Origin: Patescibacteria group bacterium
GTDB taxonomy: Bacteria; Patescibacteriota; UBA1384; XYA2-FULL-43-10; 1-14-0-10-43-13
NCBI GenBank assembly: GCA_041666325.1
Contig: JBAYHC010000001.1
Coordinates: 265,708 to 329,707, forward strand
DNA: 64,000 bases
Direction: 5' to 3'
Below are positions 14,114-33,557 of this stretch, piece after piece (within the stretch, counting starts at the first letter, position 1; every line of letters starts with the position of its first letter). The notes under the pieces were generated by a model. The model was not told where the DNA came from and searched no databases. It saw nothing but the letters and a program-made list of their open reading frames with translations. Position numbers and translations under genes: made by a program.

Positions 14114-14143
14114 TTGCCCCAATCACATCAAATCCTCTATAAT
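14114..14143 (+). promoter_or_regulatory. Putative promoter TTGCCC-18-TATAAT for PpiC gene
   Basis: TATAAT 14138..14143, ATG at 14159 with AAAGGAAA RBS. Confidence 0.35.
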
Positions 14144-14158
14144 GGCAAAAAGGAAATT

Positions 14159-15148: not shown

Positions 15149-15278
15149 ATGCCAACCAAACGAATTATTATCTTAGTGATAGCTATATTGGCTATAACCG
15201 TAGCACTGTTTGGTGTATCTGACATTTTTTCATCTTTGCACCCACAACCAATACGCCAAAGTAAGGAGATTAGATAAA

Positions 15279-16256
15279 ATGGACTATCAAGCGATACTGA
15301 CAAGGGCCTTCAATATCATTAAGAGACATCGCTTCCTGTGGCTACTTGGCCTGTTTACCGGCGGTGCAGTGCCTAATTGGCAATTTGGCAACACTAACTA
15401 TACCCCCACCGAATCTGATCTTGAGAAGCTAAGGAACTGGCAAGAGAACATTCCCATCAAACTACCCTCAACCGACTTGGTTCGAGCTGATGGCGCTGAA
15501 AGTCTGGGAAAAGTACTTGGTGATTCAGCTCAGTCCATAGTCGGTACGGACTTTTTTTGGCCGATCTTAGTTACTCTGCTCATAATATCAGGGATCGCAA
15601 TCTACCTCTCGACTACCGCCCGAAGCGCAATAATTAGGTCTGTATACCTTATCGACAAGGGCAAGGCGATTACGCTCGGTGAGTCTTGGCGCATAGGGCA
15701 CAAATACTTTTGGCGTCAACTTAGCCTTTCTGTCATTGTTTCCGCGCTGATCGTATTGCCGCTGCTCCTCATGGTAACACCGATCGTGCTGCTCGCTATC
15801 TTTGTTCCCAGTAACTACGCTCTGATACCGTCAGTTATCCTGTTTGCCATCATCATGATTGGCTTCATGATTTATGTGAGCCTAGTAACACCCTACGCCC
15901 AAAGAATGCTTATAATAGAAAACAAACGACCGCTTGAATCCATAATTGCTAGTATTAAGTTCTTTAATCAGTCATGGTTGCAATTTGTCGGACTCTATTT
16001 CATCTTGATGGCACTCAACATTGCCGCCGGCATTGTCTTTGTCCTGGCTCTCCTCGTTGCCATTGCGATACTTTTCGCTATTGGTGCAGCCATCAACACA
16101 ATGAGCTCAATTGCATTAGCAGTTTACGCATCAATTGCAGTTGTCGCGGTTATCGTCACCCTGTTGGTTTATGGCGGAATTATAAGTGCATTCTCCTCCA
16201 CCAGCACAACCCTCGCCTTTCTCGATCGTAAAAAAAGCACCAAAACCGCCTCTTAA
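15279..16256 (+). CDS. Polytopic membrane protein, unknown function
   Basis: Start moved to MDYQAILT (AAGGAGA RBS); multiple TM helices. Confidence 0.55.
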   Translation: MDYQAILTRAFNIIKRHRFLWLLGLFTGGAVPNWQFGNTNYTPTESDLEKLRNWQENIPIKLPSTDLVRADGAESLGKVLGDSAQSIVGTDFFWPILVTLLIISGIAIYLSTTARSAIIRSVYLIDKGKAITLGESWRIGHKYFWRQLSLSVIVSALIVLPLLLMVTPIVLLAIFVPSNYALIPSVILFAIIMIGFMIYVSLVTPYAQRMLIIENKRPLESIIASIKFFNQSWLQFVGLYFILMALNIAAGIVFVLALLVAIAILFAIGAAINTMSSIALAVYASIAVVAVIVTLLVYGGIISAFSSTSTTLAFLDRKKSTKTAS

Positions 16257-16277
16257 CACCGAAACATTGACCTTATA

Positions 16278-16306
16278 TGCCACCATTGACAATACGATGG
16301 TTTTGT
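16278..16306 (+). promoter_or_regulatory. Consensus-like promoter TTGACA-17-TATAGT
   Basis: Read directly; precedes GC-rich small ORF. Confidence 0.55.
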
Positions 16307-16358
16307 TTTATAGTAGCGACAATATCCCAGTCGTTTGCCCAAGAACGGAGGTGCGGTG

Positions 16359-16586
16359 ATGGGATGGATAGGAGCGCTCTGGACCATGATCTTCGGCCAG
16401 AACACGCCCGAACAGGCATTGCCTGCGGCAACGCGGCAGCCCACAACACAAAATCCTCGCGATGTCGGCTACACGGCCGACGGCGACACATTCAGTGTCC
16501 CTGAGATAAGCGCAGTCGAGCTGACAGAGCGACGAGCTGCGATTATCCTACTATCCGACGCAGAGATGTGCGAGGGTGTCGGATAG
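16359..16586 (+). CDS. Hypothetical 75-aa protein in GC-rich islet
   Basis: GGAGGTG RBS 5 nt before ATG 16359; local GC ~58% versus ~42% background. Confidence 0.4.
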   Translation: MGWIGALWTMIFGQNTPEQALPAATRQPTTQNPRDVGYTADGDTFSVPEISAVELTERRAAIILLSDAEMCEGVG

Positions 16587-16661
16587 GCCCCACACGGCCA
16601 GGACTGGACCTAGTCTACCAAGACGAAATCCACCTGGCCTGATTTTTATCCCGGATCAAGG

Positions 16662-16690
16662 TTGAATTTTATACTCAATAATGCTAGAAT
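16662..16690 (+). promoter_or_regulatory. Promoter TTGAAT-17-TAGAAT for tRNA-Asp
   Basis: Read directly. Confidence 0.5.
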
Positions 16691-16732
16691 TATTTGTGTT
16701 AATATTCCAGAAGTGAAAGACCAGTCAATTGC

Positions 16733-16809
16733 GGGGGCGTAGCTCAGTTGGTTAGAGCGCCTCCCTGTCACGGAGGAGGTCGCCGGTTCGAGCCCGGTCG
16801 CTCCCGCCA
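16733..16809 (+). tRNA. tRNA-Asp (anticodon GTC)
   Basis: GGGGGCG acceptor, anticodon stem CCTCC/GGAGG loop CTGTCAC, T arm GCCGG-TTCGAGC-CCGGT. Confidence 0.85.
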
Positions 16810-16832
16810 GTTGACTGATTTTCAGCAGAGAG

Positions 16833-16859
16833 AATGAAGCTTCCAAGCTTCATTTTTTG
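16833..16859 (+). terminator. Rho-independent terminator AATGAAG-cttccaag-CTTCATT + TTTTTG
   Basis: Read directly after tRNA-Asp. Confidence 0.6.
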
Positions 16860-16912
16860 TTTGCAAAGAAAATAAATCGCTGGTTGAACTAATTACAATT
16901 TTAGGCGCTATC

Positions 16913-16941
16913 TTGACTTTTCATCTGTTGTGTGCTATAAT
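16913..16941 (+). promoter_or_regulatory. Consensus promoter TTGACT-17-TATAAT
   Basis: Perfect -10; shows the annotated ORF start at 16913 is upstream of the TSS. Confidence 0.55.
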
Positions 16942-16996
16942 CATGGATGTCTTGTTTGGTGGGAGCGTTCAATCTGCCGACAGAGGGGATATCGCA

Positions 16997-17470
16997 ATGA
17001 GAAACATCGCCAGAACCACTGCCGTCGTACTGATCTTCGCCGCCGGCTTCATCGCCGGCACCTATCACGGTTTCTGCTACGACGACTACACCACGCTCAG
17101 CATACTTGCCGGATCACCGGACAAGATCGAGCATGAGTGGTGGACAAAGGTCCCGCAGGCCTGGTACACGATCGCCACCCTTGCTCTGCTTGCCTTTGCT
17201 GGGCTGATCTACGCTCTGACGCGCAAGCCGAAGGATCAGGAACATACCTGCACGTGCACCGGCGGTGGATGCGGCAAGTCGGCACAGGTTACTTTCTCGA
17301 TGAAAGAAGCCGTCCAGCCAGAGTTCAGGGACGAGCATATCACGAGCATCACGTACGAAATGCTCAACGAATCGACCCGGGCAGCTATCAGGGCGGCCGG
17401 GCACGGAAGCATCGTCGCTCATGGGCACGGGCTGGAAACGCGGAAAACGATCTGCCCGCCGAGCACATAG
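16997..17470 (+). CDS. Hypothetical two-TM membrane protein with Cys/His-rich motifs (HTCTCTGGGCGKS, HGSIVAHGHG), GC-rich
   Basis: Start set at MRNIARTT downstream of promoter; GAGGGG RBS; several overlapping antisense ORFs are GC-driven artefacts. Confidence 0.45.
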   Translation: MRNIARTTAVVLIFAAGFIAGTYHGFCYDDYTTLSILAGSPDKIEHEWWTKVPQAWYTIATLALLAFAGLIYALTRKPKDQEHTCTCTGGGCGKSAQVTFSMKEAVQPEFRDEHITSITYEMLNESTRAAIRAAGHGSIVAHGHGLETRKTICPPST

Positions 17471-17499
17471 GACAGAAACAACCCTTGAGCACCAGCTCA

Positions 17500-17531
17500 C
17501 CGGCGTCCCCCGTGGATGCCGGCTTTTTTTA
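17500..17531 (+). terminator. Terminator CCGGC-loop-GCCGG + 9 T
   Basis: Read directly. Confidence 0.55.
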
Positions 17532-17566
17532 TTTTTTATCAATACTTTACTCTACTAACCCAAGTA

Positions 17567-17740
17567 GTTCTTCGCGAACTTTGCCGTTTGAGATTAATGC
17601 ACTATTTATCTCCGTGTCATAGCGCTGATCCTTGCCAAAGAAATCCATCGCTCTTCCTCCTGCCTCTTCGATAATTACCTTTAGGGCAGCGACGTCATAG
17701 AAAAAGCTTACCCAAACAGAACTTTTGTTGACAGCTCTTT
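17567..17740 (-). pseudogene. C-terminal remnant of an inositol-monophosphatase (IMPase/SuhB) family gene, 5-prime truncated
   Basis: Minus-strand frame reads ...YDVAALKVIIEEAGGRAMDFFGKDQRYDTEINSALISNGKVREELLGLVE*, matching the IMPase C-terminal WDxAAG..ivEEAGG motif; upstream in-frame stop, no N-terminal part. Confidence 0.5.
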
Positions 17741-17798
17741 TTTTATTTGCTACGCTCGAGAGTCACCGATTTGGTTTATTATTGTCGAAGGAGCAACA

Positions 17799-18086
17799 AT
17801 GAATCCAGCATACGGCGGCAGTATGACTGTCACCGAGAGTGCTGGAAACTTTGTTTCCGGAGTTCAATTTAACAATAAGATCGTATCTCTTGGTGATATC
17901 ATCATTTCGGCAGGGAACTCAACGGCGGTTCCCCCGAAAGGCTCCCGGGCAGTAGTCTTTGGGATCGAGCGCGAAAAAAGCGCGCCAGCCAGCTACATCA
18001 TCGTAGCTCGCTGCCGCGACGGAGCGGTTTACCGCTTCGCACTCGACCAAATTGACTTCTCGTCCAGGGCCTGCCACCTTCTTTAG
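17799..18086 (+). CDS. Hypothetical 95-aa protein
   Basis: GAAGGAGCAACA RBS; followed by strong terminator. Confidence 0.5.
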   Translation: MNPAYGGSMTVTESAGNFVSGVQFNNKIVSLGDIIISAGNSTAVPPKGSRAVVFGIEREKSAPASYIIVARCRDGAVYRFALDQIDFSSRACHLL

Positions 18087-21743: not shown

Positions 21744-21761
21744 GGAACGTACAACCAAAAC

Positions 21762-21797
21762 AAAAGAGTCCCAGTGCGTCGGGACTCTTTTGTTTTG
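21762..21797. terminator. Bidirectional terminator AAAGAGTCCC-agtgcgtc-GGGACTCTTT flanked by A/T runs
   Basis: Between convergent gpmI and ABC permease. Confidence 0.6.
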
Positions 21798-21805
21798 TGG
21801 CTCAA

Positions 21806-23005
21806 TTACTCGTAGCGCAAAGCGTCCAGCGGATTAAGCTTAACCGCTCGTTTGGCTGGATACCAGCCAGTTACAAAACCAATCAGAAGAGAAAAAATTG
21901 CAACCGCTACAGCAAACTGCCATGGAGTAGCAAAAACTGACACGGCTTCGCTGCCTGCCCGTTCGGCCAGCATGGTCAAAACACCATTGGTGGTATAGCC
22001 CAAGGCCTCGCCTATGGCCAGACCAAGCAAACCGCCTGCGACACCGATTATAAAAGATTCGGTGATGAATAACTTGTAAACATCTCTGTTGCGCATGCCA
22101 AGAGCTTTAAACAAGCCAACCTCGCGCATCCGCTCAAGCAGGCTTATAGTTAGAGTATTGAAAGCACCAAGAGCAGCAACCACTAGAGCGATTAAACCAA
22201 AGGCACCCAGAATCATTCTGAACAAGGAAAACACTTGAGCGATCTGGTTAACTGTATCCCCCACGTACTCACTCGACAAACCAATATTTTCCAGCTGCTG
22301 TCTAATACCGGCCACGCTATCGCGGTTGTCCGCTTTAAGCTTTAATGATGAATATTTGGTTGCATCATTTTTTGCTAAAAGCTCCAGAGGAACCAAAATT
22401 ATCGGCGTTTTGTCATCTTTGATTACACCGACCACCGTCGCCTGAATTCCTTCAGCCACCTTAATGCCGTCGATCTCATTGCTCCGAAGTTCTTTTGGAA
22501 TTATGATATCCAGGCTCAATTTTTGACCAATGATTGTGTCGGCACTTTCCCCCACCAGGCTAATAATTGATTGATTTACCGACACTTCGCTATCGCCGGC
22601 AGGAAGTTTTCCTTTGTCGGCATAGATGTCAGAGAGTTTCCAGTAATCAGCATCCGCACCTACAATTACCGTCTCAGTCGATGATGAACTATCGACTTTC
22701 TTGAGACGGCCAGCCAGATTAACAACTGGCGCAATCTTCTCAATGTGACCGAAATTTTGAACTTTTTCAACGATGGTTTGATTAATGCTCAAGGTTTTTA
22801 AGTTGGCCGAAGGGACATCAATGACGGTAAAGGCGTTAAAATTCGCCACCTGATTGGTCACCAACTGCTCAAGGCCATAACCAAGCGAGACCAAAAAGAC
22901 AATTGCGCCAATACCAATCGTTACACCCAGAACCGTCAAGGTTGTCCGCAACCTGTGCGACCAAAGATTCTTGAAAGCAATTGTAAAGATTATTCTTAGC
23001 CTCAT
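21806..23005 (-). CDS. ABC transporter permease, FtsX/MacB family (large extracytoplasmic domain + 4 TM)
   Basis: N-terminal TM, ~230-aa extracellular domain, C-terminal FtsX-type TM bundle (LLERMREVGLFKALGMRNRDVYKLF). Confidence 0.85.
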   Translation of the reverse strand: MRLRIIFTIAFKNLWSHRLRTTLTVLGVTIGIGAIVFLVSLGYGLEQLVTNQVANFNAFTVIDVPSANLKTLSINQTIVEKVQNFGHIEKIAPVVNLAGRLKKVDSSSSTETVIVGADADYWKLSDIYADKGKLPAGDSEVSVNQSIISLVGESADTIIGQKLSLDIIIPKELRSNEIDGIKVAEGIQATVVGVIKDDKTPIILVPLELLAKNDATKYSSLKLKADNRDSVAGIRQQLENIGLSSEYVGDTVNQIAQVFSLFRMILGAFGLIALVVAALGAFNTLTISLLERMREVGLFKALGMRNRDVYKLFITESFIIGVAGGLLGLAIGEALGYTTNGVLTMLAERAGSEAVSVFATPWQFAVAVAIFSLLIGFVTGWYPAKRAVKLNPLDALRYE

Positions 23006-23745
23006 AGCACCCCTTTTAGTTCTTCTTTGATTGCTTTTTTAATTTCTGATTCCCCGCCGGCCGCAATTACGCCATCACGCATTGCAATTTTTTTGGTTGC
23101 CATTGGCAAATAGATTAAATTGTGAGAAACCATAATAACTGTGCGTTTACTTTTTACTTGAAGAGATTGAAATAGATTCATTATTTCATCGGAGCTATGC
23201 GAGTCAAGATTGCCAGTTGGCTCATCCGCGACTATAATCCAAGGATTATTAACCAAGGCCCGAGCCAAACCAACCCTTTGTTGCTCGCCACCCGAAAGCT
23301 GCATCGGGCGCTTGCTCCAATATTTTGCCATCCCGACTTCTTCGAGAGATTTTATCGCCCGATTTTTCGCCGCGCTGGTTTTCTCGCCAGCAATCAATAG
23401 TGGCATCGCCACATTTTCCCAGACTGTTAGAGCTTTGATCCAAAAAGGTGACTGGTAGACCATGCCAAACTTCTCGGCGCGAAAAGCCGCTCGCTCCTCT
23501 TCTTTGAGTTTATAAATATCCGTTCCCCGGATTTTAACACTGCCATCGGTCGGCTTTTCTAAACCAACAATGGTGTGCAGCAGGGTTGATTTGCCGCAAC
23601 CAGACGGTCCATAAATTATAGCGAAATCTGTCGCCCTGATCTCCAAATCAAGACCAAGCAAAACCGGTGCCTTACGGCCGCCATCCAAAATATAGTCTTT
23701 CTTCAGACCAGAGATCTTGATAATTGTATCGTGAGACCCTTCCAA
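23002..23745 (-). CDS. ABC transporter ATP-binding protein (FtsE/MacB-type)
   Basis: GPSGCGKST Walker A, LSGGEQQRV signature, IIVADEPTGNLD Walker B; ATGA overlap with permease; TTG start. Confidence 0.85.
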   Translation of the reverse strand: MEGSHDTIIKISGLKKDYILDGGRKAPVLLGLDLEIRATDFAIIYGPSGCGKSTLLHTIVGLEKPTDGSVKIRGTDIYKLKEEERAAFRAEKFGMVYQSPFWIKALTVWENVAMPLLIAGEKTSAAKNRAIKSLEEVGMAKYWSKRPMQLSGGEQQRVGLARALVNNPWIIVADEPTGNLDSHSSDEIMNLFQSLQVKSKRTVIMVSHNLIYLPMATKKIAMRDGVIAAGGESEIKKAIKEELKGVL

Positions 23746-23771
23746 AATCCCTCCCAGCGGAAAACTTATAC

Positions 23772-26700
23772 TTATTGTAATTTTGTTCCAAAGGCACCAA
23801 AGATCCAGCCCAGCGAGCGCTGTAGCGAATTGAGAATAATATCGATAACTGATTTCTGGACTTTCCCTGTGATGGTGGTCGTATCCTCTGAAGCACCAAG
23901 GTTGCCGGCATTGTCATGGGAAACTGCCCGCAGATGATAAATCTTGCTGGGATCAAGTTCGGAGACAATTACCACGTGGCTGGTTGAGTAAGCCATATCC
24001 TCTTTGGTCTTGTTGGGGTAATCCTTGCCGGAAATGCCGGGACCATATTCAATCTGGCTGGTCGCCGGTTCATCAGTTTCCCAGGTAACAATAATCTGGG
24101 CTTTTTGAGCATCACTAATACCCGAAGCCTTGACCTCGGTTGTCATATTGTTAATCTTGGGCGGTCGGGAATCAAGGGGTGTTTTAAAGGTGTTTACATC
24201 AGAGGTAGCCTGATTACCAAACTGATCGCGGCTGATCGCCTGCAACTGGTATGTTTGTTGATCTACGAGACCCCTAATCACGATTTCGTGATCAGTCACA
24301 AATTGTGAAGTTGCTGACTCCTTTTTTTCTGCTTTGTCAGAAACGTAAGTCACCGCAGATGAGGCCGGAACGTTTGTTTTCCAGCCGACTTTGATTGAGG
24401 TTAGGGCTTCCTCGTTGGCCGTTTCAAAGCGCAAGTCAGAGATGCGAGGTTGAGCAATGGTCGTGAAGGCATGGCCTGGCGAGACTACTTCGTTATTATC
24501 AGCGTCTCTGATCGTAACCTTGACCTGGTAGGTTGTGCCATCTTGCAGATCAGACATCCGAACAACATGCTTGGTCGTCCCACCACCTGAGTCATCTTTG
24601 ATCGTCTGCCCATAATCCGTGGTCGCGCCATATTCAATGGTCGATGAAGATGCTTTGTTTGTATCAAAACTAAGAATCGTGGAATTTGTTGAAGTATCAC
24701 TGAATATAACATTGGCCAAAGCGGGAGCAGCAGTAGTTGTAAAAGTGTAATCAGCCGAGTAGCCAAGAGACTGGCTGTAGTCACGCAAGTCACCGGGATC
24801 CAAACTCTGGGTCTTGAAGTGGTAGAGTGTGCCGGGGGCCAAGCCGGTAATTTTGACCGAATGATCAGTTTTTTCTTCACGGGCGCCCAAACTTAGACCA
24901 TAACTTGTCGTCGTGCCATACTCGACAAAGGCATCTGATTTGCGATCAGTGGTCCAAGTAATCTCGGCACTGGTTGCCCCAGCGACTGCTTCGACGCTAT
25001 CAGCATCAATCGTCGGCGGTGCGGTGTATTTGCCGGTTGGCTGTTTACTAACAATGCCGCCGGCTCCCGGATCTGCCGATACGGCTCCGGCTGAATCCTT
25101 GGCATATATTTTATAATAATAGGTTGTCTCTGAGGATAAATCGGAATCAATATAGCCGGTTGAAGCAACGCTGCCAACCGAAGAAAAGCTCGTTCCATCG
25201 GTTGAACGATGGACAATATACTGAGAAACATCTCCGCCCGATGATGGTGCGGACCAGGTCAATGTTAAGCGGTATTCGCTCGTTGCCCGGCTTGAGCTGT
25301 CAGTCAAGAGAATACTTGTGGGAATCCCCGGGGCAGTTGTGCTGACATAAAAATCCACACTACCATACAAATTGTAGTTAATCTGCTCCGTTTCATCCTC
25401 GGCCACCACGTAGAACGTGTTCTTCCCCTGCTGGGTAGCATAAGCATCGGTCGCGAGCGAGGTAGCTGTCGTCACAGTTGTATTGGTAGCCGTTGGCAGA
25501 GCGTTAATTGAATAACGATAACGCTTGATCGAACCACTATAGGTCTGAGGAATGGCCCACTGAAAGGAAACATCGTTGGCTAGAAGCGGAGCGCCCTCAC
25601 TGCTTGCCGGCAGGGCACTTACTGCCGTTGGCGCCGAGGCGCCCTCACCAGCGTAGTAGTACGAAACTGATGCCTCAGATGATGTATTGCCGGCATTATC
25701 AACCACTCGCAAGTAAAATGTGTTGACGCCGCTTTGGTATGCGGCTCCAGAAAGTGCGACCTGGGTTTCGGTTGTTGTGCTTGACCAATTTGAATAGCTG
25801 CCAGATGAGGCACCAGTCTTGTATTGATAGCCGGCAATACTCGAGCCAGTCGTTGGCGCTCCTGGGTCGGTGGCTGCCGAACTGCCGCCATTGGGCCAGA
25901 GAAAAGTAAAAGTCGTGCTGGTAGTAAAGCCGGAGGGCGAGGCTGACACGATTGATGGAGGCGTCGGTGCCGCTGCATCATATTTGTAAGTGAAAGCAGC
26001 ATAAGCACTCTCGGGATAATTTTCTGCCCTGTCTTTAGCCAGAACCCGCAGATAGTAAGTCGTGCCGTTAGCAATAGCCGCGGTGTCAGTGCCAATAATT
26101 ATTGCGGTACCGCTTTGGAAATGAATGCCGGTTCCGCCCACTTCGGTGGCGATGCCTCGGGTTGTCCTTGGGTCAGCACTGTCGGAAGTACCGAAGTAAA
26201 CCCAATACCCTTCGATTCCACTACCAGCATCTGAGCCGTCGCCCCAAGTAAACTTAGGTGCTGCGTAATTGTACCAATTTCCGCTTGTAAGCTCTGTTGA
26301 GCCGCCATCGGCGTTAATTGCAGTTAAAGATGCCGGATTCGTCGGATTGGTAGTATCTGCCGTATATTGAACCTCAACACTACTCAAAACAACTTGCTGA
26401 CTACCACTACCAGTCAAAATCGCCTGCCACAGCAGTCCAACGTTAGATACGGAAAAAGTGGCAATATTAGCGTGAATATCCGCCTCACTATTAGCATTAG
26501 CCAGCGAGTTTGATGCTACCCAAGCTGAACTATTCCAATATTTCCAGCTTGTTCCGTTGTCATCAGATAATCGATAAGTAATCGTGCCACCATTGAGTGT
26601 TTCTTCGGCCACAAAACCGCTCCAGGCACCGACGTCTGAATCATCAACCGCACTCGTTGGCTGAATGGTTTGAGCCGAGTTAGTATAAGGGCTGGTTGTA

Positions 26701-29700
26701 AATGAAGTCCTTGCAGTATTGCTTATCCGGACTTCATCGATCATTCCAGCGAGTTTGCCAAGAGTTAATCCTGCCCCGGTGGTGCCCTGAGCGCCACCAA
26801 TATAGAGTGAATATGCGCTGTCTGCTAAAGTAACCGAACCAAAAGCAGTTGCAGAATCCTCTAATCCATCCACATAGATTTTGGCCGTCGCGCCATCGTA
26901 GGTGGCAGCGATGTGGTACCAACCAGCATCCCAGCTAGACCTAGATGATGCAGCAATCTTGTTGTCACCATACGACCAGATCTCGCCATCACCGGCCCCA
27001 GTGCCAAGACCGGCAATAAGTTTGCCATTGTAAACGGTCATTGATTGAACATCTTCATAATTACCGGTCACCCAACTGACGCCAACAGTATCTCCCCCAA
27101 CTTTTGTCCAGCTTGAACCATCGTATTTCCAGATTTCAGCGTCGCCAGCAGAGCTGCCCAAACCAGCATAGAGCTCGCCATTATAGCTAACTAGAGAACT
27201 CACTTTTTCATAGTCGGTATTCCAGCTATTGTTTAAACCATCGCCCCCTATCTTGGCCCAGGCAGAACCATTCCAAGACCAAACCTCTGCTTCACCGGCA
27301 CTACCCCAGCCCAATCCGGCATACAATACCCCTTGATTGATCGCCAAAGAAGCCACTCCTTCATGAGGGCCATCGGACCAGGTATCATTAAGTCCGTCTC
27401 CACCAAGCTTAGTCCAAGTAGAACCATTCCACTTCCAGACTTCCGGATCAGTAGTATATGCACTGCCTAACCCCACTAAAACATTAGAGCCAGAGACTAA
27501 AATAGTATCGATGATTTCATAGGTAGCATCCGCCCAGCTAGAATTGACGGTGTCGCCGCCAATTTTGCTCCAAGTCGAGCCGTCCCATTTCCAAAGCTCA
27601 GCCTCCCCAGTCGAATAACCAAGACCGGCATACAAATTCGTTCCGTCAGAGGCAAGGGATCGGGCTCGTTCATAGGTAGTATCCGCCCAGCTAGAATTGA
27701 CGGTGTCGCCGCCAATTTTGCTCCAAGTCGAGCCGTTGTAGCGCCAGACCTCGGCATCACCAGCACCATCGCCCAACCCAGCATAGAGATAAGTTGCGTC
27801 CGAGGTCATCGAGAAAACAGTCTCATAGGTGGAATCCGCCCAGCTAGAATTGACGGTGTCGCCGCCAATTTTGCTCCAAGTCGAGCCGCTCCACTTCCAA
27901 ACCTCCGCTTCACCGCTACTGGTACCCAAACCAGCGTATAGATTACCCCCAAAATAATTCATCGAACTGACAGAATCATAACCGGAATTCCAACCAGAAT
28001 TGGTGTTATCACCACCAATCTTGGTCCAAGCAGATCCACTCCAAGACCAAACTTCTCCGTCGCCACTACCAGTACCCAAACCGGCATATAGATTAGTACC
28101 GTCACCCACCATCGAAATAACATATTCATATCCAGTACTCCAACCCGAGTTCAAGCCATCGCCACCAATCTTGGCCCAAGAAGTGCCATTGTAGCGCCAA
28201 ACCTCGGCATCTCCCGATGTCTGGCCCAAGCCTGCATAGAGATAAGTAGCATCCGCGTAGAGTGAGTAGACCGATTCATAGGTAGCTCCCGCCCACGATG
28301 AATTGGTGCCATTTCCCCCAATCGGAGTCCAGGCACCGGTCGAACCGTCATATTCATAAACAACCGCATCGCCAGGCGATGTTCCATGAAGACCAAAATA
28401 CTGTTTATTATTATAATTAGCCGAAGACATAACATCGCTCTCATAACCAGGCCCCCAGCTTTTATAGGCGCTTCGTCCACCAATCATCTCCCATGCTGAG
28501 CCATTGTAGCGCCAAACCTCCGCATCCGTGTACGACGTTCCTCCTGAACCATACAGAGCGACGTATAAAAATTGATTATCAGTAACAGCATTAACAACAT
28601 AAAGCGTAGTGTTCCACGATGAATTTGCTCCATCGCCGCCAACTTTGGTCCAAGCCGAGCCGTTCCAGGACCAGACTTCTCCATCGCCGCTGCTTATGCC
28701 ACCAACTCCGGCATATAGGCTTCCCTGGAAATTAGCCAGGGTTTTAACGTTCCCGTATGTGCCTGCATTCCACGATGAATTTGCTCCATCGCCGCCAACT
28801 TTGGTCCAAGCCGAGCCGTTCCAGGACCAGACTTCGGCGTCTTGACCCGCAGTCCCAGATGTTCCTACATATAGAGCACCGCCCATTTCCTGGAGAGAGC
28901 TAATAGCATCAATAGTCTCGTCCCACCCTCCATTAATACCGCCGCCGCCAATCATTGACCAAGACGTACCGTCGTATTGCCAGACACTTGCTTGCTTGCT
29001 AGCAGATCCATTGCCCCAAATACCAGAGCCGGCATAGAGTTTACCATTCCCCACCGTAATAGCATCTATCTCTACCAGCTGCGGCGCGAACCAGGAATTT
29101 GTATCACGACCTCCAATGGCTGCCCAGCTAGACCCGTTCCACTTCCACACCGTACCCTCATTGACATCGCCACCCAACCCAGCATAGAGATCAGTCCCGA
29201 TCACGCTCATGCTATAAACTCTATTTTCTATCCCTGTCCATCCGGAATTAGTATTATCGCCGCCAATCTTAGTCCAGGCGGAACCGCTCCAAGACCAAAC
29301 CTCAGCATCACCGCTCGAGTCACCAAGGCCAACAACCACAGAGCTACCTAGGGCAGTAATTGCATAAACACTTTCGTAATTGGTAGTCCATCCGGAATTG
29401 ATACTGTCGCCACCGATCTTAGTCCATGTTGTGCCATCATAAATCCAGACTTCAGCATCATTACCACTAGTTGAAAGACCGGCATAAAGAGTAGTACCTA
29501 TATATGCCAGCGAGGTTATTTGTTCATAAGTAGCATCGGCCCAGGAGCTATTAGCAGCGTCACCGCCGATTTTTGTCCAGGTGGTACCGTCATAGCCCCA
29601 GACTTCAGCATCGCCAGCTGAAGCGCCAAGACCCGCGTAAAGCGTGGTGGACCCATTGGTAGCAAGCGACCAAACACTTTCATAACTCGTGGCCCAGGAA

Positions 29701-30893
29701 GAGCCTACCCCATCACCGCCGATTTTTGTCCAGGAACTACCATCATAACTCCAAACTTCGGCATCTCCAGCATAGGCAGAATATATTGAAGCACAAAGAG
29801 TATTGGCATAAACAACGAGATCCCTTACTAAATAATAGCTGTTAGAGGCCGAGCTCCAACTACTGTTTTGACCATCACCACCGATTTTGGTCCAGGATGT
29901 GCCATCATACTTCCACACCTCACCGTCATAAGAGCTGCTCCCCAAACCTGAATAAAGCTCATTATTATATACTGCGAGGCCATAAACCCCTTCATAATCA
30001 GCCCCATTCCAGGAGCTGCGGACACCATCTCCGCCAATTTTTGTCCAGGATGACCCACTCCCGCTATATTTCCAGACTTCACCTGCACCAGCAGCACCGA
30101 CCAATCCAGCATAGAGCTCGTTGTTCCAGACGACTGTTGAGCTTACATAGTTTGTGCCGTGATCAGACCAATCACCATTCCCCACCCCCTCAGCAAGCTT
30201 ACTCCAGCTTTTGGCCGTATTGGGGGTTAAATCAAATTTTAACTTACCATCTGTATCGTCAAAATATAGCTTATAGTTGCCCTTATCAAAGACGCTAGCA
30301 GGAACACTTTGGGTACTGTCAAAGGCACTATTAAACTTAACATAGGCTTCGAGTGTCATAGCACCAGAGAGAGACGTGGTGCTTGAGTCAGCTACCGTAG
30401 CAACACTGCCCAAGCCACTGCCAGTAAATGATGTTCCGTTACCAGCCTTTCCTGAAGCAAAGCTGGCGCCGCTGCCGAGAGTAGCAGTGTTACTATTACC
30501 AGATGAATCAGTTGCGCTTGTCCCCTCCGTCTCGTCAAAGTGCCAAAGCGCGTTAGTGTTGTCATCGTCGCTTAGCTGCTGCAATTTATGGCGGGCTGAA
30601 TTGGACACAATCTCAAGATTGGAGCTGTTATAGGTGTAGTCAGACGAATTGCCAAATGTCCAAGTATTGGCAGCTGCATAAGCGTTTGTACTGCCACCAA
30701 AAAACGACTGGAACAAAATAGAAGTTATCAAGAGGACATAAATTGCCAGTGCCCCAAAATGAACCCTTTGGTGGTGTGGATTATGATGCCAATTATGATA
30801 GAGGGTTGATTTAGATAGCAAAAAATCATGCGCTTTGCTTAAGTGTCTGATCCTAGTCTTAGAACAGTTTGTATGCAAACACTTCCCCAACAT
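23772..30893 (-). CDS. Giant (2373 aa) cell-surface protein. Order: N-terminal signal anchor; LamG/concanavalin-like domain; ~30 tandem ~50-aa Kelch/tectonin-like beta-propeller repeats (consensus AEVW.YDGS.W.KIGGDG.NSSW...YE.V.S....LYAGLG.S.GD); second LamG_3-like domain; several Fn3/PKD-like domains
   Basis: Single uninterrupted ORF; repeats visible at protein and DNA level; start site uncertain (GGAGGG immediately abuts ATG 30893). Confidence 0.8.
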   Translation of the reverse strand: MLGKCLHTNCSKTRIRHLSKAHDFLLSKSTLYHNWHHNPHHQRVHFGALAIYVLLITSILFQSFFGGSTNAYAAANTWTFGNSSDYTYNSSNLEIVSNSARHKLQQLSDDDNTNALWHFDETEGTSATDSSGNSNTATLGSGASFASGKAGNGTSFTGSGLGSVATVADSSTTSLSGAMTLEAYVKFNSAFDSTQSVPASVFDKGNYKLYFDDTDGKLKFDLTPNTAKSWSKLAEGVGNGDWSDHGTNYVSSTVVWNNELYAGLVGAAGAGEVWKYSGSGSSWTKIGGDGVRSSWNGADYEGVYGLAVYNNELYSGLGSSSYDGEVWKYDGTSWTKIGGDGQNSSWSSASNSYYLVRDLVVYANTLCASIYSAYAGDAEVWSYDGSSWTKIGGDGVGSSWATSYESVWSLATNGSTTLYAGLGASAGDAEVWGYDGTTWTKIGGDAANSSWADATYEQITSLAYIGTTLYAGLSTSGNDAEVWIYDGTTWTKIGGDSINSGWTTNYESVYAITALGSSVVVGLGDSSGDAEVWSWSGSAWTKIGGDNTNSGWTGIENRVYSMSVIGTDLYAGLGGDVNEGTVWKWNGSSWAAIGGRDTNSWFAPQLVEIDAITVGNGKLYAGSGIWGNGSASKQASVWQYDGTSWSMIGGGGINGGWDETIDAISSLQEMGGALYVGTSGTAGQDAEVWSWNGSAWTKVGGDGANSSWNAGTYGNVKTLANFQGSLYAGVGGISSGDGEVWSWNGSAWTKVGGDGANSSWNTTLYVVNAVTDNQFLYVALYGSGGTSYTDAEVWRYNGSAWEMIGGRSAYKSWGPGYESDVMSSANYNNKQYFGLHGTSPGDAVVYEYDGSTGAWTPIGGNGTNSSWAGATYESVYSLYADATYLYAGLGQTSGDAEVWRYNGTSWAKIGGDGLNSGWSTGYEYVISMVGDGTNLYAGLGTGSGDGEVWSWSGSAWTKIGGDNTNSGWNSGYDSVSSMNYFGGNLYAGLGTSSGEAEVWKWSGSTWSKIGGDTVNSSWADSTYETVFSMTSDATYLYAGLGDGAGDAEVWRYNGSTWSKIGGDTVNSSWADTTYERARSLASDGTNLYAGLGYSTGEAELWKWDGSTWSKIGGDTVNSSWADATYEIIDTILVSGSNVLVGLGSAYTTDPEVWKWNGSTWTKLGGDGLNDTWSDGPHEGVASLAINQGVLYAGLGWGSAGEAEVWSWNGSAWAKIGGDGLNNSWNTDYEKVSSLVSYNGELYAGLGSSAGDAEIWKYDGSSWTKVGGDTVGVSWVTGNYEDVQSMTVYNGKLIAGLGTGAGDGEIWSYGDNKIAASSRSSWDAGWYHIAATYDGATAKIYVDGLEDSATAFGSVTLADSAYSLYIGGAQGTTGAGLTLGKLAGMIDEVRISNTARTSFTTSPYTNSAQTIQPTSAVDDSDVGAWSGFVAEETLNGGTITYRLSDDNGTSWKYWNSSAWVASNSLANANSEADIHANIATFSVSNVGLLWQAILTGSGSQQVVLSSVEVQYTADTTNPTNPASLTAINADGGSTELTSGNWYNYAAPKFTWGDGSDAGSGIEGYWVYFGTSDSADPRTTRGIATEVGGTGIHFQSGTAIIIGTDTAAIANGTTYYLRVLAKDRAENYPESAYAAFTYKYDAAAPTPPSIVSASPSGFTTSTTFTFLWPNGGSSAATDPGAPTTGSSIAGYQYKTGASSGSYSNWSSTTTETQVALSGAAYQSGVNTFYLRVVDNAGNTSSEASVSYYYAGEGASAPTAVSALPASSEGAPLLANDVSFQWAIPQTYSGSIKRYRYSINALPTATNTTVTTATSLATDAYATQQGKNTFYVVAEDETEQINYNLYGSVDFYVSTTAPGIPTSILLTDSSSRATSEYRLTLTWSAPSSGGDVSQYIVHRSTDGTSFSSVGSVASTGYIDSDLSSETTYYYKIYAKDSAGAVSADPGAGGIVSKQPTGKYTAPPTIDADSVEAVAGATSAEITWTTDRKSDAFVEYGTTTSYGLSLGAREEKTDHSVKITGLAPGTLYHFKTQSLDPGDLRDYSQSLGYSADYTFTTTAAPALANVIFSDTSTNSTILSFDTNKASSSTIEYGATTDYGQTIKDDSGGGTTKHVVRMSDLQDGTTYQVKVTIRDADNNEVVSPGHAFTTIAQPRISDLRFETANEEALTSIKVGWKTNVPASSAVTYVSDKAEKKESATSQFVTDHEIVIRGLVDQQTYQLQAISRDQFGNQATSDVNTFKTPLDSRPPKINNMTTEVKASGISDAQKAQIIVTWETDEPATSQIEYGPGISGKDYPNKTKEDMAYSTSHVVIVSELDPSKIYHLRAVSHDNAGNLGASEDTTTITGKVQKSVIDIILNSLQRSLGWIFGAFGTKLQ
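27531..27910. repeat. Three intragenic copies of a 56-nt identical DNA segment (atccgcccagctagaattgacggtgtcgccgccaattttgctccaagtcgagccg) at ~145-160 bp spacing; a second pair (ccacgatgaatttgctccatcgccgccaactttggtccaagccgagccgttccaggaccagacttc) at 28615 and 28775
   Basis: Exact string identity seen in sequence; reflects recent homogenisation between propeller blades. Confidence 0.7.
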
Positions 30894-30938
30894 CCCTCCA
30901 TAGAATCAAAAAACGATCCGCACAAATTGCTATCTACT

Positions 30939-30947
30939 ATTCTACCA
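30939..30947 (-). promoter_or_regulatory. Extended -10 (TGgTAGAAT) upstream of the giant gene
   Basis: Minus-strand reading tTGgTAGAAT ~45 nt upstream of ATG. Confidence 0.3.
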
Positions 30948-31056
30948 AAACTTTCAGAAAACACAAAGGTTGGATCTCGATGAATAAGCGCCGGAAAAAA
31001 ATTCCATCCCCACCGTCTCTTGCTTCCCCTCTACTCTATCTTCTAGCGGCAAATAG

Positions 31057-31875
31057 TTAATCAAAAACCAGAAATGCCTTTTGGCCATTGTTGATATTCT
31101 GTGGATCCCAATCATGAATGGCGTCAAAGAGATCTTCATACTTATAGAGATAGCCCTCACCGTTTTTCGTGCCGGGATCGTTTGTAATAAATTCATCTTC
31201 ATCGTAACCAACTATCACCAACATGTGATATTTGGGGCCGCCGTTACGAAAATTAGGGTTAGGAAGCGCTTTGCCTGATGCAGGGATAATTACAGGTCGG
31301 CCGGCGGCAATTTCTTTCTTCAAATCATCGACCGTAAAGTCATATACGATACGGCTACCGCTGATTGAGAAGTAATCATCAGCGGCTATTGATAGTTCTC
31401 GCAACGTGATTGATCCACCGTAACCGGCTCGCTCTTCGTAAGCGACCATTTTCTTGATCTCTTCGTCACCATCAGCACGAGATATTGTCGATTTGTTATC
31501 TAAAAAATGCCTCACCATAATCAAACTCGCCTCCTCGCATGCATCTTCGTGTAGAGCATCCCAATTGGCAGATGGAGCCTGAGACAAAAACGGCACTTTA
31601 ATGAGCCAGGTCATGGGCAATGCAGCATTCGAGAAGCTCTCTGCGACCTTCTTCTCGTCTGGATCAAGCGCATCTCCTTTATCCGAGATACTGGGTACCA
31701 TCTCAGCGCTCTCCTGTAGCTCAGATGTCTCAGCTGATTGATTTTGTTCCTCTTCCAGAGTCGAGATCTTCTCGGTCTCCCTTCCTTCCAAGAAGATAAT
31801 TACGCCTGTTGCCAAAATAATAGCGGTTACGATTGCAAACATAATCCTGCGCCATTTTGGGAGTTGTTTTGCCAT
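31057..31875 (-). CDS. Membrane-anchored C39-like (C39_2 family) cysteine peptidase domain protein
   Basis: N-terminal TM, VPFLSQAPSANWDALHEDACEEASLIMV catalytic-Cys motif, later HMLVIVGYDEDEFITNDPG His region. Confidence 0.7.
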   Translation of the reverse strand: MAKQLPKWRRIMFAIVTAIILATGVIIFLEGRETEKISTLEEEQNQSAETSELQESAEMVPSISDKGDALDPDEKKVAESFSNAALPMTWLIKVPFLSQAPSANWDALHEDACEEASLIMVRHFLDNKSTISRADGDEEIKKMVAYEERAGYGGSITLRELSIAADDYFSISGSRIVYDFTVDDLKKEIAAGRPVIIPASGKALPNPNFRNGGPKYHMLVIVGYDEDEFITNDPGTKNGEGYLYKYEDLFDAIHDWDPQNINNGQKAFLVFD

Positions 31876-31886
31876 ATCCTTGTTGA

Positions 31887-32744
31887 TTATTTAGATTGAT
31901 TTAATAGCAAGCCTACCCTCTCCTCCCGGACTCCTCGACCCAACTTAAATAGAAGTACACCGGCGAGCAAAGTCAACACTGTCTCAGCAATTAAGAGAAT
32001 CTTTAGCTCTTCAAATATTATATGGATTATCTTATCAAGACCGATCAGCAGCTTCTGATCAGTAATACCCCAAACTCCAATTTTGCTTGAGAGAAAATTT
32101 GGCAATACAAGATAGACAAACAGCGTGAGGCCCAGGAGAATCAAACCGACAAAAAATATATCGATCCCCACCCACGAGAAGCGCTTGGAAGCAGTCTTTC
32201 CGGAGAGCAAGAACAGTGATAATGTCGACAAAACTACAATCAAGAATTCAATGATAATTAGCAAATTAATATTTGATAATAACCTAATAACCAGACCGTT
32301 TCCCAATACTGTTTTCTTCTCCCCACCAAAAACACCGTCGTAGCCAACCTCCGCCAATGACAACCCTGTCTTGCTGTTAAATTTTTCTTGAACAGTACTA
32401 TTAATAGAAGTGAAAGAGATCATAATAGACGAGTCAGCACTAGGGTTGTCAATAACCTGGAAAAACTGATCTATCGCCCCCTCTGACAACTGCCGGATCA
32501 CGTCAGGGGTAATTGACTCTGATAAAACTTCAACAAACACACCATCTCCAGCTTTCATGTCAACTTCCTTGGAGAAGGTCTCTCTCATGCTGGCAGCTGT
32601 GAATTCGTAGGCATTACTCTTAAGTGCTATTCCCTTCAGTTTTTGGGGAGAAAGAAATGAAGCCTTCAGGTCTAGGGCTAGAATTAGTATCAGAGAATTA
32701 AAAAGGAGAAGAAAGAAAAATAGGGCGGCAAAAATTTTTCGCAT
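31887..32744 (-). CDS. Integral membrane protein, unknown function
   Basis: N- and C-terminal TM segments flanking a soluble domain; 11-nt gap to downstream gene. Confidence 0.55.
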   Translation of the reverse strand: MRKIFAALFFFLLLFNSLILILALDLKASFLSPQKLKGIALKSNAYEFTAASMRETFSKEVDMKAGDGVFVEVLSESITPDVIRQLSEGAIDQFFQVIDNPSADSSIMISFTSINSTVQEKFNSKTGLSLAEVGYDGVFGGEKKTVLGNGLVIRLLSNINLLIIIEFLIVVLSTLSLFLLSGKTASKRFSWVGIDIFFVGLILLGLTLFVYLVLPNFLSSKIGVWGITDQKLLIGLDKIIHIIFEELKILLIAETVLTLLAGVLLFKLGRGVREERVGLLLNQSK

Positions 32745-32745
32745 A

Positions 32746-32898
32746 CTAGCCTTTCTTAGCCCGTCGGAAAATTATGGAGGCTCCCAAGACGATAAACAGA
32801 ACTGGCCAGATAACATCCCACGAGTCAGCCGGCAATAGTCCGAGATTTTGAAGCAGAAGAACAACTCCCACGAGCAATAAAGTAATACCAAACCACAT
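32746..32898 (-). CDS. Small (50 aa) two-TM membrane protein not in the ORF track: MWFGITLLLVGVVLLLQNLGLLPADSWDVIWPVLFIVLGASIIFRRAKKG
   Basis: AGGAGCGGAT RBS 6 nt before ATG 32898; stop 1 nt before next gene start (translational coupling). Confidence 0.45.
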   Translation of the reverse strand: MWFGITLLLVGVVLLLQNLGLLPADSWDVIWPVLFIVLGASIIFRRAKKG

Positions 32899-32925
32899 AT
32901 CCGCTCCTATTTTAATTACATGCAC

Positions 32926-32954
32926 ATTCTAACAAAAATTACTCACATGCACAA
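32926..32954 (-). promoter_or_regulatory. Operon promoter TTGTGC-17-TAGAAT with TG extension
   Basis: Minus-strand reading tttTTGTGCatgtgagtaatttttgtTAGAATg. Confidence 0.5.
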
Positions 32955-33023: not shown

Positions 33024-33557
33024 CTAAGCCGCTGACCCTGCCACAAGAGGACAGGAAATTGCGGCCGGAATCGCCTCTGCTTGGTGCACGTCCCGTGCAT
33101 CCCTAGGAATGACGAATGCCAGACTACCTTCTGCCAGACGCCAGTGCCTCCAACAGAGAAGAACCTTTGCGAGAAACACTCCGCGATGGTTTTCCTCGTT
33201 TGTCGACGCCAGCTCGAGTGCTTTATCAGCAGCCTGATAGACCTGCAAGACAGCTGAGTGGAACCTATCCTCGCTATATCCATCCGATCGGACCGAGACA
33301 AATAGGTTGCCCCTCCACACTGTCATGGCCACGGTAACGATATAGTCGCCGTTGTGCCTGAAACAGTTGGCGACAATCTCGCTAAGACCGAGAACGATGT
33401 CCCCGATCCTCTCCTCTTCCCAGTGGCGGGACAGGAGGAGTGCCCTGATTGCTTGACGCATGCGACCCAAGTCGCCCGCGCCTGATAGCACTACCTTCTT
33501 CACCTCATACCCCCCTCTGTGAACCGAGCACAGCCACAACGAATAGCAGTAGATCAT
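33024..33557 (-). CDS. GHKL/HATPase_c-like ATP-binding protein resembling RsbW/SpoIIAB anti-sigma factor kinases; GC-rich (about 57%) orphan
   Basis: GDIVLGLSEIVANCFRHNGDYIVTVAMTVWRGNLFVSVRSDG resembles HATPase_c_2 N/G1 boxes; no STAS/sigma partner nearby; start codon uncertain. Confidence 0.45.
   Translation of the reverse strand: MIYCYSLWLCSVHRGGYEVKKVVLSGAGDLGRMRQAIRALLLSRHWEEERIGDIVLGLSEIVANCFRHNGDYIVTVAMTVWRGNLFVSVRSDGYSEDRFHSAVLQVYQAADKALELASTNEENHRGVFLAKVLLCWRHWRLAEGSLAFVIPRDARDVHQAEAIPAAISCPLVAGSAA

Follow-up and report, generated by a model that had tools for sequence, protein, structure and literature searches.

A conserved gene module of Patescibacteria pairs a giant, putatively surface-exposed protein with a MacB-type ABC system

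Introduction

ATP-binding cassette (ABC) systems of the MacB/FtsX/LolC superfamily (type VII) convert ATP hydrolysis into movement of an extracytoplasmic domain and carry no substrate across the membrane. FtsEX, whose partners are PcsB, CwlO, RipC and EnvC, transports nothing and passes ATP-driven movement to a protein bound on its outer face; LolCDE pulls a membrane-embedded anchor from the outer leaflet; MacB, Spr0694-0695 and YknYZ are efflux or resistance pumps. Here we analyse a locus of the Patescibacteria, which are monoderm, where a system of this superfamily is encoded next to a giant protein. It lies in a stretch of 64,000 nucleotides (hereafter the window; assembly GCA_041666325.1, contig JBAYHC010000001.1, positions 265,708 to 329,707 of the forward strand) and comprises six co-oriented open reading frames (ORFs) on the minus strand, 21806-32925. 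At 100% protein identity the window corresponds to a metagenome-assembled genome labelled 'Patescibacteria group bacterium' (P0001, P0121, P0241). The genes for the giant protein, an ABC ATPase and a permease, with their promoter (P2) and terminator, are a conserved system, here called module A. The other three, for a small LiaF-like transmembrane (TM) protein (LiaF-TM), a membrane protein (Mem285) and a C39-like peptidase, are a separately conserved small envelope unit (module B). To our knowledge, little has been established about host recognition and attachment in Patescibacteria, for which type IV pili are the only structures examined by experiment. A conserved giant surface protein in at least about 290 species-level genomes, coupled to a MacB-type machine, would be a candidate, open to experiment, for an organelle of the envelope or of host contact.

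Module A resembles FtsEX in combining an ABC ATPase with a four-TM permease of the FtsX fold, and by analogy the working principle of FtsEX is the one we propose for it. Its permease, however, carries a MacB periplasmic core, and the pair fails the cut-offs of the FtsX and FtsE models. The partner of FtsEX is a coiled-coil peptidoglycan hydrolase, whereas that of module A would be a propeller/Fn3 protein of about 250 kDa whose gene is in the same operon almost without exception. The permeases of MacAB-TolC, Spr0693-0695, YknXYZ and YtrEF are closer relatives (PDB entries 5gko, 5xu1_M and 9o9x), with the same domain order and an ATPase of the same clade. In contrast to those systems, module A has no MacA/HlyD gene annotated in the three loci that we read gene by gene and no outer membrane channel; a giant secreted protein holds that position in the operon. 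LolCDE belongs to the same superfamily, and its extraction of an anchor is a plausible analogy for the handling of an amphipathic helix at the C terminus of the giant protein, but the LolC/LolE scores of module A are far below cut-off and the giant protein has no lipobox.

Giant repetitive surface proteins beside an ABC system are also found with LapA/LapG/LapD and the C39-ABC exporters, and in this genome, likewise, a papain-like peptidase is encoded nearby. Module A differs in its fold, which is that of FtsX/MacB and not of the ABC_membrane exporters; a C39-ABC fusion and genes for a membrane fusion protein (MFP) or TolC are absent here, the giant protein has a probable Sec-type signal peptide, and the linkage of the peptidase to the giant protein is not conserved. 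Foldseek matches of its modelled halves liken the giant protein to PorZ (type IX secretion), GH74 xyloglucanases, LRP and the Sevenless/ROS1 ectodomains, with several propellers of the seven-blade type followed by strings of Fn3 domains. This is a match at the level of fold (9-14% identity), the blade repeat has no sequence relationship in Pfam or the PDB, and a MacB-type ABC system accompanies none of these proteins. A preprint on the Lipocone superfamily describes a patescibacterial operon of VanZ-2, an ABC system, a membrane-anchored papain-like peptidase and a Lamin-tail-domain (LTD) protein (doi 10.1101/2025.01.14.632903). Like the peptidase of the window, its peptidase is anchored in the membrane at the N terminus and carries a charged linker, but the description includes no giant propeller protein (doi 10.1101/2025.01.14.632903). 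None of the six window proteins has a VanZ or LTD match in Pfam. That operon resembles module B but was rejected as a different system, and here the peptidase and the ABC pair lie in separate conserved units. A literature search of the full texts available to search returned no description of a giant protein with a MacB/FtsX ABC module in the candidate phyla radiation (CPR).

Results

The features of module A are, in order of transcription:

30939-30966, minus strand: promoter P2, TTGTGT-16-TGgTAGAAT, within a 163-nt gap; predicted to serve module A (giant-ABC)
23772-30893, minus strand: giant protein, 2373 aa; Laminin_G_2, fn3 and Pur_ac_phosph_N matches
23002-23745, minus strand: ABC ATPase, 247 aa; ABC_tran; TTG start with GGGAGGG 4 nt upstream
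21806-23005, minus strand: permease, 399 aa; MacB_PCD and FtsX
21757-21793, minus strand: terminator-like hairpin AAAAGAGTCCC-gacgcac-TGGGACTCTTTT and then GTTTTGG, after the permease stop; common to the convergent iPGM gene

The giant protein and the ABC pair are linked across the Patescibacteria

Homologues of the giant protein form at least 475 clusters at 90% identity, mostly of 1900-2400 aa, and their source names include Saccharibacteria, Woesebacteria and Pacebacteria. Identity to the giant protein is 34-57% in the 120 homologues among the matches listed. When one genome per species was scanned with a 28-member family alignment, at least 582 pattern-matched stretches were confirmed; a gene contributes at most two, and therefore at least about 290 species carry a giant gene. 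The best 80 loci of these at least 582 stretches (L008-L087) were taken with flanks of up to 10 kb. The 80 best matches are 80 distinct loci, which would fit one copy per genome. Downstream DNA of at least 2.3 kb was available in 69 of the loci and upstream DNA of at least 2.5 kb in 59.

The ATPase and permease genes lie directly downstream of the giant gene on the same strand in 65 of the 69 loci, and in the remaining four the pair is found within 4 kb of it. One of these four has the permease directly after the giant gene and the ATPase just upstream on the opposite strand (L012), two have a single inserted gene (L046, L048) and one has an assembly gap (L084). The first possible ATPase start usually lies within a few tens of nucleotides of the giant stop, often overlapping it; in the window it is 26 nt past that stop, and the permease start overlaps the ATPase stop by 4 nt. 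The linkage spans records labelled Saccharibacteria, WWE3 and Moraniibacteriota. Three contexts read separately (L005-L007) all have the order giant protein, ABC ATPase, MacB_PCD/FtsX permease, and the genes upstream of the giant gene differ among them (smpB, folD, beta-lactamase). The initial annotation had taken all six genes for one system and had named independent distribution of the genes in relatives as evidence to the contrary. The giant protein and the ABC pair have held together; the peptidase, Mem285 and LiaF-TM, which are absent within 10 kb of the giant gene in the 80 loci, have proved to be distributed independently.

The permeases linked to giant genes match the window permease at E values of 1e-56 to 1e-182, whereas for the other paralogues of MacB type found in these loci the values are 1e-15 to 1e-32, two tandem duplicates excepted; by sequence the linked permeases form an orthologous set apart from those paralogues. 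They come in a short form (400-435 aa) and a long form (690-870 aa), the latter being extended at the N terminus and having a far bigger extracytoplasmic domain; the long form is not a duplication. Permease size class agrees with the class of the C-terminal motif of the giant protein (GRA... or PKA...) in 62 of 62 classifiable pairs, a match that fits co-evolution.

The sole other recurrent neighbours of the 80 loci, whose flank clusters carry no Pfam annotation, are histidine-kinase genes (20 loci) and response-regulator genes (17 loci), mostly downstream of the module. Two receiver-domain genes follow the permease directly in L005; beside the module in the window there is no kinase or regulator gene. 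In two loci (L063 and L083) closely similar ABC-ATPase/MacB-permease pairs flank the giant gene on both sides, the upstream pair matching the window permease at E 1e-59 to 1e-75, which suggests a tandem duplication of the motor. Several records that carry the module are titled Gammaproteobacteria, Bdellovibrionales or Pseudomonadales (L016, L020, L021, L023, L040, L042, L046, L048, L052, L054, L069-L072, L075, L077, L085). Over their last 30 residues the giant C termini of L016 and of P0213, which is labelled Woesebacteria, differ at a single position. The taxonomic labels of these records look unreliable.

The ABC pair is MacB-like

The permease matches PF12704 (MacB_PCD, E 2e-19) and PF02687 (FtsX, E 6e-23), both above the gathering score. 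Four hydrophobic segments (residues 19-49, 255-291, 312-337 and 355-384) make up its TM helices, and the MacB periplasmic core lies between TM1 and TM2. Its best relatives of solved structure are MacB (5gko, E 1.7e-23), the Spr0695-type permease (5xu1_M, E 2.1e-23) and Bacillus subtilis YtrF (9o9x, E 5.7e-23); FtsX (8i6o) follows at E 7e-4. The ATPase matches PF00005 (E 5.8e-32), and its best NCBIfam models are LolD, FtsE, YbbA and MacB, placing it by sequence in the LolD/FtsE/MacB clade. With both proteins assigned, the pair is a type VII system.

The equivalog models separate it from the better-known members. The permease scores 31-43 bits against the FtsX equivalogs (43 against FtsX_Gpos, cut-off 225; 37.5 against FtsX_Gneg, cut-off 255) and 81 bits against lolCE (cut-off 362). 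The ATPase scores 211 bits against LolD (cut-off 308) and 186 against FtsE (cut-off 265). The sequence thus identifies the permease as MacB-like and not FtsX, and the pair is not LolCDE. As the initial annotation had allowed, identity with the cell-division FtsEX was a live question; these scores settle it in the negative.

Other ABC assemblies fit no better. A BceAB-type module joins a ten-TM permease, which bears a large extracellular domain, to an adjacent BceRS-type two-component system; here the permease has four TM segments, and kinase or regulator genes, found near module A in 17-20 of the 80 loci, do not adjoin it in the window. A MacAB-TolC-type pump would need further components, and the six window proteins contain no MFP or outer-membrane channel domain. 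Neither is there an MFP (HlyD/MacA) gene among the Pfam-annotated neighbours in L005-L007, nor did one stand out among the recurrent flank clusters of the 80 loci, those clusters being without Pfam annotation. Type I secretion and the C39-ABC exporters are set apart by the FtsX/MacB fold, by the C39_2 peptidase being a separate gene and by the N-terminal hydrophobic signal of the giant protein. The earlier view that the locus is neither a type I secretion nor a sortase system therefore stands, for the giant protein also has no LPXTG-like motif and no C-terminal TM segment by which a sortase-anchored surface protein would be recognised.

Architecture of the giant protein

From the N terminus to the C terminus the giant protein is composed as follows, the last two lines giving the repeats at the level of the DNA:

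residues 1-75: long basic, His-rich N-region and putative signal peptide (hydrophobic segment 43-68, then AYA↓AA)
residues 76-245: conserved N-terminal domain without a Pfam match; low-confidence model
residues ~247-1300: 20-21 predicted propeller blades (repeat consensus and model)
residues 1279-1392: LamG, a marginal Laminin_G_2 match
residues ~1405-2342: about nine Ig/Fn3-like domains (Pfam fn3, Pur_ac_phosph_N four times, Arylsulfotran_N)
residues 2349-2368 (23790-23849, minus strand): predicted C-terminal amphipathic helix KSVIDIILNSLQRSLGWIFG..., which ends the protein
26994-30155, minus strand: blade repeats, 20 units of 50-55 aa, consensus GDAEVWxYxGSxWTKIGGDGxNSSWxxxxYExVxSLxxxxxxLYAGLG
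27516-27988: DNA tandem repeat with a 153-bp period (51 codons), 2.8 copies with 77% matches by Tandem Repeats Finder

The N terminus had been read as a signal anchor. The small-residue site that follows the hydrophobic segment makes a cleavable signal peptide likelier, and similar sites follow the hydrophobic segment in homologues; applying the -3/-1 rule, we consider a cleavable Sec signal peptide probable. Ahead of its core lies a His-rich, putatively cytoplasmic N-tail (LSKAH..L..KS..YHNWHHNPHHQRVH; residues 1-48, 30750-30893). It is kept closely in one of the two closest homologues (P0122) and partly in the other (P0123) and is absent from three more distant members inspected; its role would be unexplained if the signal peptide were simply cleaved.

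The blade region contains 20 clear repeats, usually of 51 aa, and one degenerate unit, fewer than the roughly 30 blades initially counted. No Pfam propeller family (Kelch, tectonin, BNR/Asp-box, WD40) matches the giant protein at E up to 0.01, and the Kelch/tectonin-like assignment was not confirmed; NCBIfam gave no repeat family either, and a profile of the 20 repeats finds nothing among PDB sequences at E up to 10. The sequence families giving no match, the blades are propeller-like by model comparison. An AlphaFold2 model from a 16-row alignment has 20 four-stranded sheets at a predicted local distance difference test score (pLDDT) of about 75-90, and the top Foldseek matches of the blade model are the tandem-propeller proteins LRP2/LRP4, PorZ (5m11), Elp2, DDB1 and GH74. 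Twenty-one blades would fit about three seven-bladed propellers, and the earlier picture of a multi-propeller/Fn3 surface protein holds on this model. Most relatives have 13-14 blades against 20-21 in the window lineage; since the DNA tandem repeat has the period of one blade as well, the array appears to have expanded recently by blade duplication.

The LamG domain of the initial annotation was found again, as the marginal Pfam match listed above. This region and the N-terminal domain were modelled at pLDDT below 50, so that LamG is a candidate assignment from Pfam and the N-terminal domain has no assigned fold. For the second half of the protein Foldseek returned titin, mastigoneme, gp130 and ROS1/Sevenless. 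All family members share the conserved C-terminal helix (80 C termini aligned), which ends ...GRASDSVLTIILNTLKKVFGF-COOH or ...PKATDNALNLVISNLQQVFGFLG. No other part of the protein reaches its helical hydrophobic moment, and it is the only long helix modelled in the C-terminal half. The protein has no second or C-terminal TM segment and no lipobox.

Module B is a separate unit

The features of module B lie upstream:

32926-32954, minus strand: promoter P1, TTGTGC-17-TGtTAGAAT; predicted to serve module B (LiaF-TM, Mem285, peptidase)
32746-32898, minus strand: small two-TM protein, 50 aa from an ATG with AGGAG 7 nt upstream; LiaI/LiaF-like TM domain
31887-32744, minus strand: Mem285, membrane protein of 285 aa; no Pfam/NCBIfam family
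31057-31875, minus strand: peptidase, 272 aa; Peptidase_C39_2

The small protein matches PF18917 (E 1.8e-11) and PF22570 (E 4e-10). In Mem285 about 115 extracytoplasmic residues separate a first TM segment at the N terminus from three to four more (four to five hydrophobic segments in all), and no Pfam or NCBIfam model matches the protein. It is an orphan in part at most: a word-based search found only the protein itself, but a HMMER scan of 1.84 billion representative proteins found 60 distant relatives at 22-33% identity. In the two contexts read (L089, L090) Mem285 homologues always adjoin a LiaF-TM gene, and in the L090 genome this pair occurs without the peptidase. A 265-aa gene upstream of the peptidase homologue in L003 was considered as a Mem285 relative and rejected (BLASTP E 0.15, no match to the family hidden Markov model, HMM).

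The peptidase belongs to Peptidase_C39_2, with a YvpB-like papain fold, by its match to PF13529 (E 3.7e-14; 53.9 bits, cut-off 24) and its Gln/Cys/His/Asp set. It has 2205 homologues, and the named ones all carry Patescibacteria/CPR labels or generic JGI names. Because Q99, C113, H217 and D233 are invariant in 120 of 120 homologues, the enzyme is probably active. It has one TM segment, at the N terminus, with K/R residues before it and an acidic linker after it, which would place the catalytic domain outside the cell.

Searches with phmmer using the window peptidase, Mem285, LiaF-TM and the HATPase ORF upstream of P1 found no credible match in the 80 giant loci and their flanks of up to 10 kb, and HMMs of the peptidase family (120 homologues) and the Mem285 family gave none either (best E 0.026). 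Three peptidase homologues of about 50% identity on long contigs lie beside mraZ and PBP genes, beside glycosyltransferases, and beside a reverse transcriptase with bAvd, and no giant gene or ABC pair is near them. In the closest relative with both modules (CAZGWE010000002.1; giant protein 52% identical), LiaF-TM (49 aa), Mem285 (280 aa) and a C39_2 peptidase (277 aa) form a cluster at about 35-37 kb; the giant gene, ATPase and permease lie over 40 kb away, at about 79-88 kb. That further Mem285 and peptidase homologues lie on common contigs is suggested as well. Absent near the giant gene in the 80 loci and separately conserved elsewhere, the peptidase is a chance neighbour; the system of interest has three genes, not six.

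Two side observations concern these genes in relatives. Near the trio in L089 (9166-11402) lie genes for a SurA-like peptidyl-prolyl isomerase and a DUF7544 protein; their window counterparts (14114-16256) are about 16 kb from the trio, with the enolase, iPGM and giant-ABC genes in between. A rearrangement that brought trio and giant gene together in the window would fit this. The reverse transcriptase mentioned above (RVT_1, 358 aa) and bAvd (115 aa) are directly beside the C39_2 homologue P0060 at L003:8037-9521 and L004:8023-9507, and look like the cassette of a diversity-generating retroelement.

Two promoters of one form

The six genes and the promoter TTGTGC-17-TG-TAGAAT (32954-32926) were confirmed where the initial annotation had placed them, but the gaps and the number of promoters were not. 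In gene order the intergenic distances are 1, 11, 163, 26 and -4 nt, where 1-26 nt had been given; the 163 nt separate the peptidase stop from the giant start, and they hold a second promoter (P2, 30966-30939) where only one had been seen for the locus. Since the gap has its own promoter of the same form, and the permease stop is followed by a hairpin and T-run, the sequence suggests two transcription units. P1 and P2 are the sole two matches to TTGTGY-N15-18-TAGAAT in the window, with 0.08 expected, and have nothing in common outside the hexamers. TGnTAGAAT also occurs upstream of the tRNA-Asp and enolase genes and looks like the ordinary strong promoter type of the genome. The TTGTGY...TAGAAT promoter was not found upstream of giant genes in relatives.

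Discussion

We propose, with confidence only slightly above even, that Sec exports the giant protein, which forms a fibre on the cell surface, and that a dedicated mechanotransmitting ABC pair holds or works the base of this fibre, module B being a separate neighbour. The signal peptide of the giant protein would be cleaved. The N-terminal domain, the roughly three seven-bladed propellers and LamG would form the distal end of the fibre, and the string of about nine Ig/Fn3 domains its stalk. The C-terminal amphipathic helix would lie at the membrane, where the helix or the stalk base may be held at or in the permease dimer. ATP hydrolysis would then drive holding, release or conformational work on the giant protein, and the propeller/LamG head would most likely bind a conserved ligand, a glycan or a component of the envelope, either on a host cell or on the cell's own wall. 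That the giant protein is the client or partner of the ABC pair is argued by the near-invariant end-to-end gene linkage, by the lack of any other anchor and by the conserved C-terminal helix. If this is correct, the mechanotransmission principle of FtsEX, MacB and LolCDE extends to a new kind of partner, and module A would be a type VII ABC system whose partner belongs to a new class. What the sequences show is the gene order and its conservation, the domain content, the subtype of the ABC pair and the separateness of the two modules; cleavage of the signal peptide, contact with the permease, the nature of the ATP-driven work and the ligand are part of the proposal.

Several points weigh against this proposal. 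Contact between giant protein and permease is something we infer from the genes, and the C-terminal helix was modelled at low confidence (pLDDT 42-50). The match between motif class and permease size could just as well stem from the existence of two clades. The recurring kinase and response-regulator neighbours fit a stress or resistance role, as does the fact that other monoderms use pumps of the MacB family in resistance to peptides or antibiotics. As to the transcription units, no clear terminator follows the peptidase gene, so that transcription from P1 may read through into the giant gene. In the cultivated Saccharibacterium S. epibionticum there are MacB-type pairs of similar size, and its annotation tables contain no PF16656 match (PMC10633639 supplement). 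Such MacB-type pairs may thus work without a giant partner. Its essential 'fibronectin III' protein SEML1_0890 was considered as a member of the giant family and rejected, the gene being only 588 bp (about 195 aa).

These points bear on the reading of the ABC pair as a pump for efflux of, or resistance to, antimicrobial peptides, toxins or lipids, with the giant protein merely co-expressed or serving as a passive scaffold in place of an MFP. Such a pump would sit well with the best solved relatives of the permease, MacB and the pneumococcal MacB-like permease, with the nearby two-component genes, which are reminiscent of peptide-sensing modules, and with the occurrence, in the same genomes (L006, L019, L056) and in S. 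epibionticum, of MacB-type pairs that have no giant gene beside them. We nevertheless think it unlikely, because co-expression alone is not expected to keep a 6-7 kb gene joined to the pair across several CPR classes; moreover, the giant-linked permeases are an orthologous set of their own, and no HlyD/MacA gene was seen among the annotated neighbours in three loci or stood out in the unannotated flank clusters. An S-layer-like or wall-spanning scaffold, which the ABC pair helps to insert or renew, has a slightly smaller chance still. For a surface protein, 36-57% identity along about 2000 aa between classes is strong conservation, fast-evolving host-specific adhesins usually diverging more, and the 80 distinct loci would be consistent with one copy per genome. 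The variable blade number (13-14 or 20-21) and the recent duplication, however, are more like an adaptable binding surface, and the S. epibionticum tables suggest that the giant protein may not be universally required.

Processing of the giant N terminus by the C39-like peptidase, in the way that LapG cleaves LapA, with the ABC machine displaying the protein, was the reading that joined all six genes. In this genome they stand side by side in one orientation, the two units could be co-regulated through the same unusual -35/-10 form of P1 and P2, and the peptidase is predicted to be active and outward-facing. As a conserved system it is largely refuted by the 80 loci without a C39, Mem285 or LiaF-TM gene, the unrelated contexts of the peptidase homologues, the trio standing as its own unit in the closest relative and the promoter-bearing gap between the units, and we regard it as very improbable. 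Least credible of all is a cell-division FtsEX with no functional tie to the giant protein. The permease does have the FtsX Pfam domain, and the ATPase scores 186 bits against the FtsE model, but on the family-membership tests the sequences have already refuted this identity: both proteins fall short of the equivalog cut-offs, the periplasmic core is that of MacB, MacB outranks FtsX among solved structures, and the pair is tied to the giant gene in 65 of 69 loci, whereas neither the annotated neighbours nor the flank clusters that recur include a gene recognised as one of cell division.

A bolder form of our proposal is that the giant protein and the ABC pair are an ATP-powered surface organelle, widespread in Patescibacteria, in which the cytoplasmic ATPase, acting mechanically through the permease, would extend, retract, latch or release a propeller/Fn3 fibre of about 250 kDa for attachment to and detachment from the host. 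We consider this doubtful at present. Were it true, mechanotransmitting ABC systems would gain both a novel class of partner and a novel biological role.

The locus is flanked on one side by the convergent enolase and iPGM genes and on the other by a tRNA cluster and an ORF just upstream of P1 on the same strand (33024-33557, 177 aa). This ORF has a weak HATPase_c_2 match, anti-sigma-factor-kinase-like (E 8e-7), and no homologue of it was found beside the trio genes in L089 or L090. Elsewhere in the window, positions 16001-18000, where the one 185-aa ORF scanned had no Pfam match and Rfam gave tRNA-Asp alone, have a GC content of 0.51 against about 0.44 elsewhere and overlapping ORFs on both strands.

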